Positions 2,475 to 7,162 of a stretch of 24,000 nt of DNA are shown here, piece after piece. Numbering within the stretch: position 1 is the stretch's first letter; the number at the start of each line of letters is the position of its first letter. Origin of the DNA: Alkalihalobacillus sp. BA299 (GTDB lineage: Bacteria; Bacillota; Bacilli; Bacillales; Bacillaceae_F); assembly GCF_017745675.1 (NCBI RefSeq), contig NZ_JAFLJM010000005.1, positions 265,324 to 289,323 of the forward strand, given 5' to 3'. The position numbers and the translations under genes were made by a program. The notes beneath the pieces are model-generated. The model was not told the origin of the DNA. It saw nothing but the letters and a program-made list of their open reading frames with translations, and did no database searches.

Positions 2475-2531
2475 TTTTAAAATATTGCATTATATTAGGA
2501 AGTGGAACGTGATTGCAGTGTCTTTCCTAAA

Positions 2532-2717
2532 GGCTCTTTTTTCAAAGATTGTTGCTCTTTGCTTTTGGACCGTAAGCCAAGCGGATGCTTGGCTCTTCAC
2601 GCTACGCGTGAAGCTTTTGAAAATAAAATAGCCGTTCAGACAAATAAATTTGTCTTGAAAAGACTATTTTATTTTCAAAAAAACGGTCCAAAAGCAACAA
2701 AGTTTACGAAAACAGCC
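2532..2717 (+). mobile_element. MITE-like non-autonomous element, copy 1 (186 bp)
   Basis: It begins GGCTCTTTT... and ends ...AAAACAGCC, which are imperfect terminal inverted repeats. It is flanked by the identical 8-bp direct repeat TTCCTAAA (2524-2531 and 2718-2725). Homologous copies lie at 15499-15683 and 23439-23623. The interior has nested hairpins. The 77-aa ORF 2502..2735 is an artefact of this element. Confidence 0.85.
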
Positions 2718-2731
2718 TTCCTAAAACACGA

Positions 2732-2764
2732 GTAGCATCTGTTACAGGTGCTACTTATTTTTTC
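2732..2764 (+). terminator. Rho-independent terminator (probably the original traB-family gene terminator, displaced by the MITE)
   Basis: GTAGCATCTG-TTA-CAGGTGCTAC forms a 10-bp stem with one G-U, followed by TTATTTTTT. Confidence 0.6.
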
Positions 2765-2772
2765 TAAAAAAG

Positions 2773-2814: not shown

Positions 2815-3942
2815 TTGGTAAAGCCGTTTGTAAAGTGGCCAGGAGGCAAGTCTGCCGAACTGGAAATCATCCATCAATATATGCCGAAAACAATGAACAA
2901 TTATATCGAGCCCTTTTTAGGTGGGGGAGCATGCTTTCTCTCGATTAAAAAAGAACGATATCATCAAGCTTATGTTAATGATTTTTCAAGTGAGCTGATT
3001 GCATTATATACATTGACAAAAGAAAAAAATGAGTTGTTTCAGCAATATTTACAGGAAATATGGGAAGTATGGAGTTTTTTTGGAATGTTGTCCAATGATT
3101 ATTATGAAACACTCCGACGCTTCTATCAGCAATTTAAAAGTAACGAAATTGATAAAGAACAATTAAAACAAATTATTAATGAAATGATTGAAATTAAGCG
3201 AAATGAAATTGCATTAGGAGTACAAAATAGTTTGAATATCAATTTTGAAAGGTTAATAACGGAGCTAAAAAAATCACTCCTATCAAAATTCGGTAACACT
3301 AAGAATAACGAATTAAAAAAAGGCGACCTGCCAGAAGAAGATTATCGAAAGAACTTTGAATCCAGTATCAGGGCAAGTGTTTATACGTATTATCGCTATC
3401 TTTATAATGAGAGGGTAAAATATAATCTTAATCAAGAAATGCATATTGCTTTATTTTTCTACTTACGTGAATTTTGTTATTCGTCAATGTTTAGATATAA
3501 TAAGAGCGGTGGTTTTAATGTTCCTTATGGTGGAACTTCGTATAATAGTAAAGCATTTCATCATAAAATCGAGTACTTATGGAATGACGAACTGCAGGAA
3601 ATTTTAAGTCGTACGAATATATATAATGTCGACTTTGAGAAATTTTTACAGGGAATTCCTATTCATGAAGAGGACTTTATCTTCTTAGATCCGCCATATG
3701 ATAGTGATTTTTCGACGTATGCTAATCATTCGTTTGCAAGTCATGATCAAGAGCGGCTCGCGGAGTACTTATTAAACGAGTGCAAGTGCCGTTTCATGCT
3801 AATTATTAAAAATACCGACTTTATTTTTAATCTTTATAATCAGCCTGGTATCAATATTATTGGCTTTAACAAAGAGTATAGCGTAAGTTTTATGGATCGA
3901 AATGATCGTAAGGTAGAACATATCTTAATAACGAATTATTAA
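2815..3942 (+). CDS. Dam-family (D12 class, alpha group) N6-adenine DNA methyltransferase
   Basis: TTG start preceded by AGGAGG. It has the FVKWPGGKS motif (KW.GGK), the EPFLGGGA AdoMet motif (F.G.G) and the catalytic DPPY near the C-terminus. This is the order found in Dam/DpnM. At 375 aa it is roughly 100 aa longer than E. coli Dam. Confidence 0.9.
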   Translation: MVKPFVKWPGGKSAELEIIHQYMPKTMNNYIEPFLGGGACFLSIKKERYHQAYVNDFSSELIALYTLTKEKNELFQQYLQEIWEVWSFFGMLSNDYYETLRRFYQQFKSNEIDKEQLKQIINEMIEIKRNEIALGVQNSLNINFERLITELKKSLLSKFGNTKNNELKKGDLPEEDYRKNFESSIRASVYTYYRYLYNERVKYNLNQEMHIALFFYLREFCYSSMFRYNKSGGFNVPYGGTSYNSKAFHHKIEYLWNDELQEILSRTNIYNVDFEKFLQGIPIHEEDFIFLDPPYDSDFSTYANHSFASHDQERLAEYLLNECKCRFMLIIKNTDFIFNLYNQPGINIIGFNKEYSVSFMDRNDRKVEHILITNY

Positions 3943-3976
3943 AAGGTAGAGCAGCTTAGTCTCTACCTTTTTTATT
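3942..3976. terminator. Bidirectional terminator between convergent methyltransferase and MarR-GNAT genes
   Basis: AAAGGTAGAG-loop-CTCTACCTTT forms a 10-bp stem, with an A-run before it and a T-run after it. Confidence 0.7.
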
Positions 3977-4041
3977 GGTAATGAATCCAATATCCCTTGT
4001 TTCCAATTTTGATTTTTCGTTTTACTTTGTTTAGTATTCAT

Positions 4042-4959
4042 CTAAAGGTCGAGATCCCATCGTTCTTCGATTAATTTCGTTCCGGTCCATTCTTCATTTG
4101 GTTTTTCTTCAGTTAGTTTAAAATTATATTTTTGGTAAAGATAGCGAGCCGTGTGCAATGTGCTTACTGTCCATAAAAATACATGCTGATATTTTAGTTC
4201 TTCACAGAAATTAAGGGCAGTCTCCATGAGTTTTTTCCCAATGCCCATGCCCTGATAATTTTCATCCAAAACAAACCATCTTAGCTGTGCTACTGTATCA
4301 CTGGACTTCGTAATTGCAATCGAACCGACGATTTCACCATTCACTTCAGCAACCCAAAGCTCTCCTCTATCGGTATTAATCATAAATTCTGTTAAACCTT
4401 TCATGACGTAATATTCAAACATCCGACCGAACTTATATGTCTTATCATATAACTTTCCATGAAGATAGGCGACGTATCCAATATCACCGGGTTGACATGG
4501 TCGAATGACGACTTCTGATTGGGAAGAATGTTCTTTCGAGTAAATTGATTCGATTGTTTCCATCGCTATGACTAGCTTAGATAGATCATTTTTTGATAAG
4601 TTTTCAATCATCTTATTTACCCCACGATTAGCATTTTCAACTAAGTCTTGGAAAATTTCTTTGCCATATTCAGTTAGATAGAGAGAATGCTGACGTTTAT
4701 CCACTTTTGACTGTTCTTTTATGATGATATTTTCATCCTCGAAACGTTGGATAATTCGACTCATATAGCCTCGGTCAATACCAAGATTTTCTCTGACTTC
4801 AGTTGCAGTACAACCATTTCTGTAATTGATTTCAGTAATAACCCGTGCCTCCGTTAATGGAAAAGGTTGATTATAGATTGCTTGATCGATTTTGCCTAGA
4901 ACATTTGCATAATACCTGTTGAATTTTCGGATTTTCTCTACATATTGGGTTGATTTCAT
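4042..4959 (-). CDS. Bifunctional MarR-family HTH regulator / GNAT N-acetyltransferase fusion
   Basis: The N-terminus LTEARVITEINYRNGCTATEVRENLGIDRGYMSRIIQRFEDENII...DKRQHSLYLTEYG is a MarR winged helix. The C-terminus ...LRWFVLDENYQGMGIGKKLMETALNF... is the GNAT acetyl-CoA motif (Q/R..G.G). Confidence 0.85.
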   Translation of the reverse strand: MKSTQYVEKIRKFNRYYANVLGKIDQAIYNQPFPLTEARVITEINYRNGCTATEVRENLGIDRGYMSRIIQRFEDENIIIKEQSKVDKRQHSLYLTEYGKEIFQDLVENANRGVNKMIENLSKNDLSKLVIAMETIESIYSKEHSSQSEVVIRPCQPGDIGYVAYLHGKLYDKTYKFGRMFEYYVMKGLTEFMINTDRGELWVAEVNGEIVGSIAITKSSDTVAQLRWFVLDENYQGMGIGKKLMETALNFCEELKYQHVFLWTVSTLHTARYLYQKYNFKLTEEKPNEEWTGTKLIEERWDLDL

Positions 4960-5009
4960 GGATAATTCTCCTTATTATTCAGTAAATTAACACTAACTAT
5001 ATTCTATCC

Positions 5010-5038
5010 TTTTATAGTTGACTCAGTCAACTATAAAA
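5010..5038. promoter_or_regulatory. Perfect 13-3-13 palindrome, candidate MarR-type operator
   Basis: TTTTATAGTTGAC-TCA-GTCAACTATAAAA lies 50-80 nt upstream of the MarR-GNAT start, in the divergent intergenic region shared with the DUF3883 gene. Confidence 0.5.
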
Positions 5039-5175
5039 CAAATACCATATACAGTTTGTAAATCAAAGGGAGTGAGTCAATAATCTTTTTATTGAATCTG
5101 AAATAGCGAGGAAACATAAAACATCGATGGTATGGTACGCTAGCATTAATAGAGTGGACTAAAGGAGGAGTAAAA

Positions 5176-5940
5176 GTGAGTAATTATACCGAAAGAGAAA
5201 TACTTGCTGTTGCTATAAAAATTTTAGAAGAATCGGGGGAAATGACGACGACAGAGTTAAAAGAAGCCCTTATGTTCGATATGAAGCCAGATGGTAACGA
5301 TTTAGAAATCAACATGAATCGCAATGACACGAAATTTGAGCAAAAAGTAAGAAATATGATCTCTCACCGAGAAAACAATGAATTGTTGAAGTACTGTGAA
5401 TATCGAAGAGTAGGCCGAAATGGCATTTTAAGATCTAGGTCTTTACCAAAATTAGAACGAGAAGGAAATGATAAAAAGGAAATTGCTGAACGAAAGGAAA
5501 AGAAGCGACGGTTTCAGGCAAGAAAAGTGAACTTTGATGAGCTTAATATGAGAAATAAAAAGATTGGGTTAATGGGGGAGGAGTTTGTTCTTAAAATTGA
5601 AAAAGAAAGACTCAGTCAAGAGCTAAATGAAAAAGTGATTCATATTTCCCTTGAAGAGGGGGACGGGGCAGGCTACGATATTTTATCTTATGAAGAATCA
5701 GGAAAACCAAAATTTTTAGAAGTAAAAACAACAACAGGTCAGAGGGAAACACCGTTTTACTTAACGGAAAATGAAAAAGCATTTATTGAAGAGTTTGGAA
5801 ATGAGGCTGAAATCGTAAGGGTTTACGAGTTTGATCTAGAGACAGGTACCGGCAAAATTTTTAGGATGAATGGAGAAAATTTTCTCGCAAGCGTAAATTT
5901 GCAATCAGTCGCTTATAAAGTTACATTAAAGAAAAACTGA
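5176..5940 (+). CDS. Winged-helix (Mrr_N-like) + DUF3883 PD-(D/E)xK nuclease-like protein
   Basis: GTG start with SD AAAGGAGGAG. The C-terminal GLMGEEFV...GAGYDILSYEE.GKPKFLEVKTTTG...FYLTENE gives an E...D...E.K arrangement typical of the DUF3883 / restriction-endonuclease-like fold. The N-terminal 80 aa resemble the small wHTH found at the N-terminus of Mrr. A K/R/E-rich linker joins the two parts. Confidence 0.7.
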   Translation: MSNYTEREILAVAIKILEESGEMTTTELKEALMFDMKPDGNDLEINMNRNDTKFEQKVRNMISHRENNELLKYCEYRRVGRNGILRSRSLPKLEREGNDKKEIAERKEKKRRFQARKVNFDELNMRNKKIGLMGEEFVLKIEKERLSQELNEKVIHISLEEGDGAGYDILSYEESGKPKFLEVKTTTGQRETPFYLTENEKAFIEEFGNEAEIVRVYEFDLETGTGKIFRMNGENFLASVNLQSVAYKVTLKKN

Positions 5941-5973
5941 GCACAGTGGTAAAAAGTTACAATCAAAAGGAAA

Positions 5974-5993
5974 GAGAGCCCCAAAAGGCTCTT
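5974..5993. terminator. Hairpin terminator between the DUF3883 gene and the convergent YjcZ-like micro-gene
   Basis: GAGAGCC-CCAAAA-GGCTCTT. The T-rich tail is better on the minus strand (TTTCCTTTTGATT). Confidence 0.45.
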
Positions 5994-6040
5994 CTTGTGA
6001 GTGTTTAAGGAGAAAGGATGCAGGTGGACTTTCGTGCTAA

Positions 6041-6142
6041 TTAGTAATAAGGTTTAACAAAAGCTGTCCCAACAATGATTAATAAAATGAACAGAACAAC
6101 GATTAACTCAAAATTATTATCTTTTTTGTGTTCATGACTCAT
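6041..6142 (-). CDS. YjcZ-like small hydrophobic (sporulation-type) protein, 33 aa; absent from the ORF track
   Basis: The minus-strand ATG is preceded by GGAGGTGAAACCTTC. The translation is MSHEHKKDNNFELIVVLFILLIIVGTAFVKPYY. The core F.LIVVLFILLIIVG is the signature I associate with the YjcZ family. A CATAaaaTA (SigK-like -10) lies upstream on the minus strand. Confidence 0.55.
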   Translation of the reverse strand: MSHEHKKDNNFELIVVLFILLIIVGTAFVKPYY

Positions 6143-6339
6143 GAAGGTTTCACCTCCTAAATACACAGGATTACTATATTTTATGCCTTGTCTTTATGAA
6201 TGTGTAGACGAACTTCATCCGGTAAAAAACCATTTTACGAAAGGATATGTTGACCGTGTATTAAAAGAAAAATTGATGATAATTTTAAAACAGAGATAAA
6301 GGTTATTTAACGATCGAAACAGAATATTTGAATTTAAGG

Positions 6340-7061
6340 TTAGTGTTTTATCTGTGGAATAATTACATTATGTTCATCCTTTAAAGAAACATGTAATTCC
6401 AGATCACGATTTATCGAGGCAAAAAAGACATTCTTTAGTTCATTTACTCCTTGATTAGATAATTGTTCCTCTAACCATGTTTGACTCAGTTTAAAATCCC
6501 TTAAGATATCCGAATAAATGGTTCCCTCTACGATGATTGGAAGAGCAACCATAGATGTTGGCTTTATAATCTTCATATCTTCTAAACGGGATGTTTTTCA
6601 GTTTTCTTTAATACGCTCAAAGCTCCATTTGCTTCAATAATTGCTGTTTCAACTTCGCTGATGTCAAATACGTTTTTTTCTCTAAGCATTTGAAGTATGT
6701 TATCGATAGAATAACGAATTTTTTTTAGGTTTTTATCGAGAAACTTCCCATTCTGAATTACAACAGTGGGCTCAAAGGTAAGTAATCTCCCTATTTTACG
6801 ATTGGTTATTTTCCAGTTGGTAATGACCCTTTGAAAAAGAGCAATAATAATAATAGCTACTGCGGTGGGGAAATGTTTTATACTAGGGTCTGCGATGTCA
6901 GCACCAACAACAGCTCCCAATGTGATAATAATTAAATAATCAAATATTGGCAACTCACCAATTGCACGTTTTCCCATATAAAGGGTCATAAACAAAAGTA
7001 AAGGTAAAATCGTAACGATTCTTCCTAAAACCAAAAGTGAGTCTGACAGAAATTCAAACAT
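6340..7061 (-). pseudogene. DUF421 (YetF-like) membrane protein split into 159-aa and 78-aa ORFs by a frameshift
   Basis: The two ORFs cover the N-terminal membrane plus first soluble part (...ANGALSVLKKTEKHPV*) and the C-terminal part (..IIKPTSMVALPIIVEGTIYSDIL..SQTWLEEQLSNQGV...) of a single YetF-like protein. Reading HP-R-LEDMKIIKPTS across plus-strand GGG 6588-6590 would restore one ORF, which implies a 1-nt loss in a C/G run. Confidence 0.6.
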
Positions 7062-7162
7062 TGTTTGTACCGCCTTTTTTCTATAAATTTTATGCTAATT
7101 ATTTGAAGTAACATTTGTTTCGAAATTTCTTATGCTATAGTTGGAAATATTTATGTGTTTAG

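Follow-up and report, generated by a model that had tools for sequence, protein, structure and literature searches.

Three Copies of a Miniature Transposable Element in Alkalihalobacillus sp. BA299, Very Probably Derived from an IS1595-Family Insertion Sequence

A Three-Copy Repeat in the BA299 Window

The DNA analysed here is a 24-kb stretch of the genome of Alkalihalobacillus sp. BA299, called the window throughout. It contains three copies of a 185-186 bp repeat, located at 2532-2717 (copy 1, + strand, 186 bp), 15499-15683 (copy 2, + strand, 185 bp) and 23439-23623 (copy 3, - strand and inverted, 185 bp). Each copy is intergenic and lies between genes that point in the same direction. The repeats are very probably MITEs (miniature transposable elements with inverted repeats) derived from an ISBsm2-like insertion sequence (IS) of the IS1595 family. 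As mobile elements they are genuine, if rather ordinary.

The three copies, which had been placed at these positions by an earlier reading of the sequence alone, are confirmed by alignment. Copies 1 and 2 are 93% identical, as are copies 1 and 3, and copies 2 and 3 share 95% identity. In a three-way alignment including 32 nt of flanking DNA per side, the likeness is confined to the segment GGCT...AGCC and stops abruptly at both ends. The terminal inverted repeats (TIRs) are 28 nt long and imperfect, with 82% complementarity between GGCTCTTTTCTCAAAGATTGTTGCTTTT and the reverse complement of AAAAGCAACAAAGTTTACGAAAACAGCC. A few bases further inward, they are extended by a GGACCG/CGGTCC pairing.

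Short direct repeats flank the element. Copy 1 is bordered by TTCCTAAA/TTCCTAAA (2524-2531 and 2718-2725; 8/8) and copy 3 by TATTCATA/TATTCATA (23431-23438 and 23624-23631; 8/8), while the 8-mers around copy 2, AAATAGAA/AATTAGAA (15491-15498 and 15684-15691), agree at seven of the eight positions. These 8-mers are unlike from locus to locus, and the flanks of the three copies are unrelated. Imperfect TIRs and locus-specific 8-bp direct repeats were both part of the sequence-only reading, and both stand.

The MITE has no usable reading frame. A 77-aa open reading frame (ORF) with a GTG start spans copy 1 at 2502-2735; its frame, earlier dismissed as an artefact, is not preserved in the other copies. 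Using six IS1595 transposases as tblastn queries, nothing below E = 0.1 was obtained in the window, and Pfam scans of the window ORFs contained no transposase domain. The element was correctly described as non-autonomous on this ground. A match to a known structured RNA family, which had been named as a finding that would speak against a transposon, was not obtained either: Rfam gave 0 matches at gathering score across the whole window. A permissive E-value search of the window returned only look-alikes of microRNA precursors and small RNAs, 50-120 bits under the gathering scores.

Full-Length Relatives and Family Assignment

The parent family was reached through a plasmid search in which a 33-nt TIR consensus served as the query and the E-value cut-off was relaxed. 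This search identified, on a Priestia flexa plasmid, a TIR-bounded element of 1303 bp with a frameshifted transposase gene, the product of which matches PF12762 (DDE_Tnp_IS1595) at E = 1e-10. The stitched pseudo-protein was used as a query in turn and produced 762 matches at E <= 1e-10, the best of which are intact and ~335 aa long. Where named, these best matches are called “IS1595 family transposase”, including those of ISBsm2 (Bacillus smithii) and ISAlis1. Among the 120 matches listed of the 762, a single fragment has no Pfam entry, and all others are annotated with PF12762 and/or as “IS1595 family transposase”.

The full-length elements are 1.3-1.8 kb in size and encode a transposase of ~335-340 aa with the DDE_Tnp_IS1595 domain. 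In the elements described next, the ends equal the window TIRs at 24-26 of the 28 positions, and the 8-bp duplications are perfect. The element of Sporosarcina psychrophila (L125; L numbers designate the loci) is 1565 bp long, with ends GGCTGTTTTCGCATAGATTGTTGCTTTT / GGCTCTTTTCGTAAAGATTGTTGCTAAT and the duplication TTAATTAA. ISBsm2 of B. smithii (L127; 1497 bp) has the same type of TIR and the duplication TTTTTATA. The same TIR type also borders a 1765-bp element (L130, L132), duplicated as TTTTTAAA at one site and as TTATAAAA at another. This last IS (L130-L133, 1420-3184) carries an intact transposase gene together with a DinB-family passenger gene and occupies several different sites.

The two ends of these insertion sequences can be told apart by the base at position 5. 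The left TIR of copy 2 (15499-15526, + strand, 28 nt, GGCTCTTTTCTCAAAGATTGTTGCTTTT) has a C at this position, like the full-length IS at its transposase-distal end. In the right TIR (15656-15683, 28 nt, GGCTGTTTTCGTAAACTTTGTTGCTTTT in the - strand reading), the base is a G, as in the transposase-proximal end. The window MITE retains one end of each type, which is what an internal deletion of the IS would leave. At the right end of the MITE, the similarity reaches beyond the TIR: on the transposase-proximal side of the L130 IS, the first 40 nt align at 80% with copies 2 and 3, and the first 64 nt at 75% with copy 1.

The sequence-only reading had tentatively linked the repeats to the ISL3 family, in which case a transposase of that family would recognise the GGCTCTT... 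ends and create the 8-bp duplications. Many ISL3 ends do start with GGCTCTT, and the 8-bp duplications are confirmed. However, IS1595-type elements give a duplication of the same length, so this feature cannot separate the two families. The transposase genes do separate them: four out of four independent full-length TIR-bounded elements encode an IS1595-type transposase (PF12762) with no other domain reported, and in ~1 Mb of loci none of the TIRs had an ISL3-type gene next to it. For ISBsm2 itself, the transposase matches PF12762 at E = 6e-16, with a sub-threshold match to the IS1595 zinc ribbon and no ISL3-type domain reported. An ISL3 origin is thus very improbable, and the earlier link is not supported. 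The search for a full-length IS with the same termini, proposed along with that link, was successful in other Bacillaceae. An Enterococcus faecium plasmid match, checked as a possible ISL3 end, was uninformative. A parentage in IS6/IS26, considered for its 8-bp duplication and GG..T..TTGCAAAG-like terminus, was dropped once IS1595-type full-length elements with this TIR appeared.

A TIR Superfamily across Bacillaceae

A degenerate TIR pattern was scanned against one genome per species. At least 116 stretches contain it, and practically all of them come from genera of the Bacillaceae. The matches listed include Neobacillus, Cytobacillus, Mesobacillus, Rossellomorea, Pseudalkalibacillus, Fictibacillus, Metabacillus, Lysinibacillus, Virgibacillus and others. 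Pairing of inward-facing TIRs among these matches resulted in at least 87 elements in other genomes, ranging from 70 to 1118 bp. A perfect 8-bp duplication surrounds 45 of the 87, and 63 agree at seven or more of the eight positions, where shuffled pairing expects 0.7 and 3.0, respectively. Duplication lengths of 5-7, 9 or 10 bp did not fit among the 87 pairs. The target sites are AT-rich and of the TTTnnAAA type for MITEs and full-length elements alike. Their left side is rich in T and their right side in A.

After removal of the TIRs, 76 elements fell into 29 interior clusters, representing at least 29 unrelated interiors. The subfamily of the window element, as defined by this clustering, consists of the three BA299 copies, L097, L068 and L135. 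Among the matches listed, its interior occurs only in Alkalihalobacterium loci, over the full length at 83% identity in L097 and partially in L068 and L074; elsewhere only the ~28-nt ends match. A metagenome contig (L138) holds a further subfamily copy, 184 bp long and 70% identical. The copy in L074 (~1290-1552; Alkalihalobacterium sp. APHAB7) is truncated: its left TIR and its first two hairpins (H1 and H2, described below) are intact and followed by unrelated DNA, and no right end was found at this locus.

One interior type of ~195-460 bp is shared by 28 members (e.g., L031 4865-5088, L038 7769-7992, L040 1170-1393 and L099 6897-7124) from Pseudalkalibacillus, Fictibacillus, Rossellomorea and Alkalihalobacillus, among other genera. 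This distribution suggests that the subfamily is old or has spread horizontally, with the reservation that the clustering was single-linkage and the group may be a chain. Other members of the superfamily carry cargo. A Lysinibacillus element (L055 3162-4206) has the same TIR, a perfect 8-bp duplication and a GNAT acetyltransferase gene, and one of Paenibacillus tyrfis (L066 2582-3699), equally with this TIR and a perfect 8-bp duplication, encodes a zf_CopZ protein next to a remnant of a transposase N-terminus.

A 183-bp superfamily MITE with a perfect TTAGCTAA duplication was found in a record labelled Chryseobacterium sp. ISL-80, a member of the Bacteroidota (L051, JAGGQZ010000007.1). Since other “ISL-” records are Bacillus, mislabelling or contamination seems more likely here than transfer. 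In Bacillus yunxiaonensis (L075), a 419-aa ORF, beginning with MRVFVKNLRGEPLMPCSPRKARILLKQGKA and containing an HNH-like CxxC...H motif, lies ~333 nt inside an unpaired TIR (4074-4101); we take it to resemble an RNA-guided nuclease of the IscB/RRXRR type. The ORFs beside unpaired TIRs are ordinary host genes and no transposases. Querying plasmids with the whole MITE by blastn gave no match, and the TIR pattern had five weak, uninformative matches in viral contigs.

Occupied and Empty Sites

One member of the window subfamily can be compared with its empty site. It is 123 bp long, lacks the long hairpin and is inserted in Alkalihalobacterium sp. APHAB7 8 bp past the nupC stop codon, with the arrangement TAA-TTTTATAA-(123-bp MITE)-TTTTTTAA-ACAGGGACAAAAACC. 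This occupied site was compared with L140, L141 and L142. The corresponding empty site, TAA-TTATATAA-ACAAGAAAAAACC, with a single 8-mer, is present on two contigs of a relative with a 95% identical NupC. The element is likewise missing from Alkalihalobacterium elongatum, whose NupC is 92% identical and whose gene order there, coatX-nupC-lytS, is the same. The search for empty sites that had been suggested on the basis of the sequence is thus answered for this subfamily member.

These sites bear on the idea that the repeat is immobile and stands at fixed positions, as a structured module conserved for regulation or termination, or as a palindrome of the type of repetitive extragenic palindromes and bacterial interspersed mosaic elements (REP/BIME). 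Its strong structure and its consistently intergenic location would suit such a role. Against it stand the unrelated flanks with their locus-specific 8-bp direct repeats, the empty site of the subfamily member, termini common to transposase-bearing IS elements, and the lack of both an Rfam match and a terminator consensus inside the element. Relatives also lack the element, Desertibacillus after nupC, and both A. elongatum and a Logan contig before the WYL gene. The probability of an immobile repeat is therefore close to nil. The sequence-only reading had interpreted the repeats as a footprint of transposition and not as a conserved regulatory site, and it is upheld by the duplications, the empty site of the subfamily and the negative Rfam search.

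Desertibacillus has no MITE downstream of nupC; pdp and deoC intervene before xapX, so this site is not comparable. In A. elongatum and the Logan contig, the WYL gene is preceded by a divergent S58 peptidase gene and by no MITE. The homology with the right flank of BA299 starts there at about the right 8-mer of copy 2, and the left flank is not homologous.

For the IS1595-derived MITE, mobilisation would proceed in trans. A transposase encoded elsewhere in the BA299 genome, or formerly encoded there, would recognise the TIRs, cleave the target with an 8-bp stagger, and cut and insert the MITE. Several points weigh against this interpretation. Mobilisation in trans is itself deduced, and an autonomous IS1595-family element of BA299 was not found in the 24-kb window searched. 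A full-length IS with the subterminal GGACCG motif of the subfamily was not found, an extended-TIR scan of metagenomes giving only one more MITE. The duplication of copy 2 is imperfect (7/8), possibly because this copy sits at a rearranged junction. Finally, no strict empty site for the window copies was present in silico among all fetched loci. This results from the fact that the collection holds no relative with more than 90% protein identity (eight window proteins are each singletons at 90% clustering) and that relatives show rearrangements around the loci of copies 2 and 3.

Genomic Context of the Copies

Copy 1 begins 57 nt past the stop codon (2474) of a TraB/PrgY/GumN-family gene, within the gene's 3′ region and ahead of its intrinsic terminator. 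A hairpin resembling an intrinsic terminator, followed by a T-run, lies just 3′ of the copy at 2730-2765 (+ strand), in host DNA outside the element. The copy was therefore inserted between the gene and its terminator, and probably belongs to the 3′ untranslated region (UTR) of the TraB/PrgY/GumN-family gene. A D12-class N6-adenine DNA methyltransferase gene follows immediately 3′ of copy 1, at 2815-3942.

Copy 2 separates a frameshifted HPP-family gene (stop codon 15490-15492) from a WYL/YafY-type regulator gene (GTG start at 15708). The left 8-mer overlaps the HPP stop codon, and the other end of the copy lies 24 nt ahead of the regulator GTG. Without copy 2 and one 8-mer, the spacing between the two genes would be ~22 nt. 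The HPP-family gene is split by its frameshift into 15006-15275 and 15301-15492, and in the same region (14378-15492) an S58 peptidase gene is reduced to its C-terminal ~200 aa, compared to 354 aa in A. elongatum.

Copy 3 is positioned between a nupC-type nucleoside transporter gene, which ends at 23378, and an XapX-domain gene at 23697-23858. As the neighbouring genes are codirectional, all three copies are probably cotranscribed as parts of adjacent mRNAs. No intrinsic terminator, i.e., a G+C-rich hairpin followed by a T-run, is present inside any of the three copies, and no sigma-70-like promoter consensus was found inside the element.

Copies 2 and 3 are located at points where the gene order departs from that of relatives. 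Desertibacillus haloalkaliphilus has the order nupC-pdp-deoC-xapX (L134 4222-6501), compared to nupC-(MITE)-xapX in BA299 (23379-23696), where pdp and deoC are missing; their absence may reflect a deletion at or near copy 3. A further difference concerns the distance from the D12 methyltransferase gene to a 128-aa gene (homologue of window 13658-14053), which is 134 bp in A. elongatum (L136 147-281) and ~9.7 kb in BA299. The extra BA299 DNA (3943-13656) encodes MarR-GNAT, NOV_C, YetF, DMT transporter, DUF3231, PLD-like and PLA2-like proteins. It is located between copies 1 and 2 and is not bounded by them.

Fold and Structure-Preserving Divergence

The window element is highly structured. In copy 2, hairpin H1 (15542-15561, + strand) consists of GCCAAGC-GGAT-GCTTGGC and one closing pair, and is directly followed by H2 (15562-15580, + strand; CTTCACG-TATAG-CGTGAAG). 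The long hairpin H3 (15582-15647, + strand) has the lower stem GAAAATAAAATAGCC/GGCTATTTTATTTTC and a conserved apical palindrome, GACAAAT-N4-ATTTGTC. Internal palindromes had been recognised from the sequence, including a “perfect 15-bp stem”. The palindromes are present. Copies 2 and 3 pair at every position of this stem; in copy 1, it pairs at 14 of 15 positions and reads GACTATTTTATTTTC. Folding, also proposed at that stage, gave -87.9 kcal/mol for copy 2, compared to -39.1 +/- 3.9 for shuffled sequences (z -12.7), and a z of -14.2 for the opposite strand, values far beyond chance.

All full-length members of the subfamily share one shape, in which the TIRs and the GGACCG motif each form a stem and three hairpins are present. 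It is conserved in A. elongatum at 83% identity and in the metagenome copy (L138) at 70% identity, although the lower stem of H3 is wholly different in the latter (CAGACAGGGAAACGC/GCGTTCCCCTGTCTG versus GAAAATAAAATAGCC/GGCTATTTTATTTTC). In an alignment of five sequences, which represent about three independent lineages, 95% of the cells pair and the apical palindrome is invariant. Changes on both sides were counted in 13 of the 75 pairs, compared to 4.1 +/- 1.6 in column shuffles (0/500) and 1-7 in slid controls. This pattern is suggestive, but not conclusive, of a structure-preserving divergence of the subfamily.

A strongly folded interior is not a property of the superfamily as a whole. With the TIRs removed, z ranges from -7.6 to -13.7 in the window subfamily, against a median of -1.6 for 70 sister MITEs. 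As many sister MITEs with the same TIR are unstructured inside, the interior fold is not required by the transposase, and the three-hairpin interior would be dispensable for mobility. It would then either be selected for another reason or be kept by hairpin-templated correction in replication. Template switching and correction at hairpins during replication is a known mutational mechanism.

Selection is the essence of a further explanation, in which the MITE has been exapted and the four-way-junction fold of the subfamily (the TIR stem with the three hairpins) is maintained for a function that it has as RNA or as DNA. It might act as a stabiliser in the 3′ UTR, as an RNase target, as an intergenic insulator, through transcript stability, processing or coupling, or by binding a protein at GACAAAT-N4-ATTTGTC. 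The extreme fold, with z between -12 and -14 when the entire element is folded and its persistence in the interior alone, the architecture retained at 83% and 70% identity, and the excess of both-sided changes all argue in this direction. The positions of copy 1, between a stop codon and a terminator, and of copy 2, 24 nt before a start codon, are also in agreement with it. However, the sample covers only about three independent lineages, and template switching within a hairpin can produce compensatory changes without selection. Short variants without H3 exist (L068, L135), the element contains no promoter or terminator consensus, and Rfam has no match for it. Taken over all these modes together, exaptation is conceivable but rather unlikely.

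Significance

The repeats gain a corrected family assignment, IS1595 and not ISL3. MITEs from IS1595-family elements have already been reported; what goes beyond the routine is the breadth of the TIR superfamily and the suggested structure-preserving divergence of one subfamily. A single 28-nt TIR marks very widespread MITEs and cargo cassettes in the Bacillaceae, which makes the superfamily useful for annotating genomes, explaining assembly breaks and reading rearrangements. In BA299, the copies are placed where host expression can change, before a terminator and 24 nt before a regulator start. The preserved structure of the subfamily is a modest lead on the exaptation of MITEs that can be put to the test; if this were true, the element would be a domesticated MITE that shapes host transcripts or binds a protein, and not a passive relic. 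The current understanding of bacterial transposons is unchallenged by these results.

Comparison with Known Systems

The ISL3 family has in common with the window element the 8-bp duplication and a terminus of the GGCTCTT type, but the full-length elements that share the window TIR instead encode a PF12762 transposase.

Small size, TIRs, an intergenic location, cotranscription and long stem-loops characterise the structured bacterial MITEs Correia/NEMIS, RUP, BOX and ERIC, of which Correia duplicates TA. The window element resembles them in being small, TIR-bounded, intergenic and probably cotranscribed, with long stem-loops, while they have other parents and other duplications.

The IS1595 family is noted for its passenger genes, and a mobile insertion cassette, MIC231, is known in Bacillus cereus. 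The cargo of the sister elements L055, L066 and L130-L133 fits this trait; the window copies, in contrast to these mobile insertion cassettes and passenger-carrying IS1595 elements, have none. A review of Correia/NEMIS, RUP, BOX and ERIC is available (PMC3184786).

Among described MITEs, the ISHwa6-related element of Haloquadratum walsbyi has 165 bp, a 25-bp inverted repeat, an 8-bp direct repeat and an IS1595-family parent (PMC3852290, Table 4). It is similar to the window element in size, TIR length, duplication length and parent family, and differs in its archaeal host, in the sequence of its TIR and in its interior. Full-text searches of the open-access literature found no paper describing the Bacillaceae MITE superfamily or ISBsm2, and a prior curation in ISfinder is possible.

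The closest known systems are the ISBsm2-like IS1595 elements of Bacillus smithii, Sporosarcina, Priestia, Cytobacillus and others, whose transposase is annotated at NCBI as “IS1595-like element ISBsm2 family transposase”. The TIR (24-26/28), the 8-bp duplication and the AT-rich targets are common to both. Compared to these insertion sequences, the window element is reduced to 185 bp without a transposase gene, and its interior is unrelated save for ~40-64 nt at one end.

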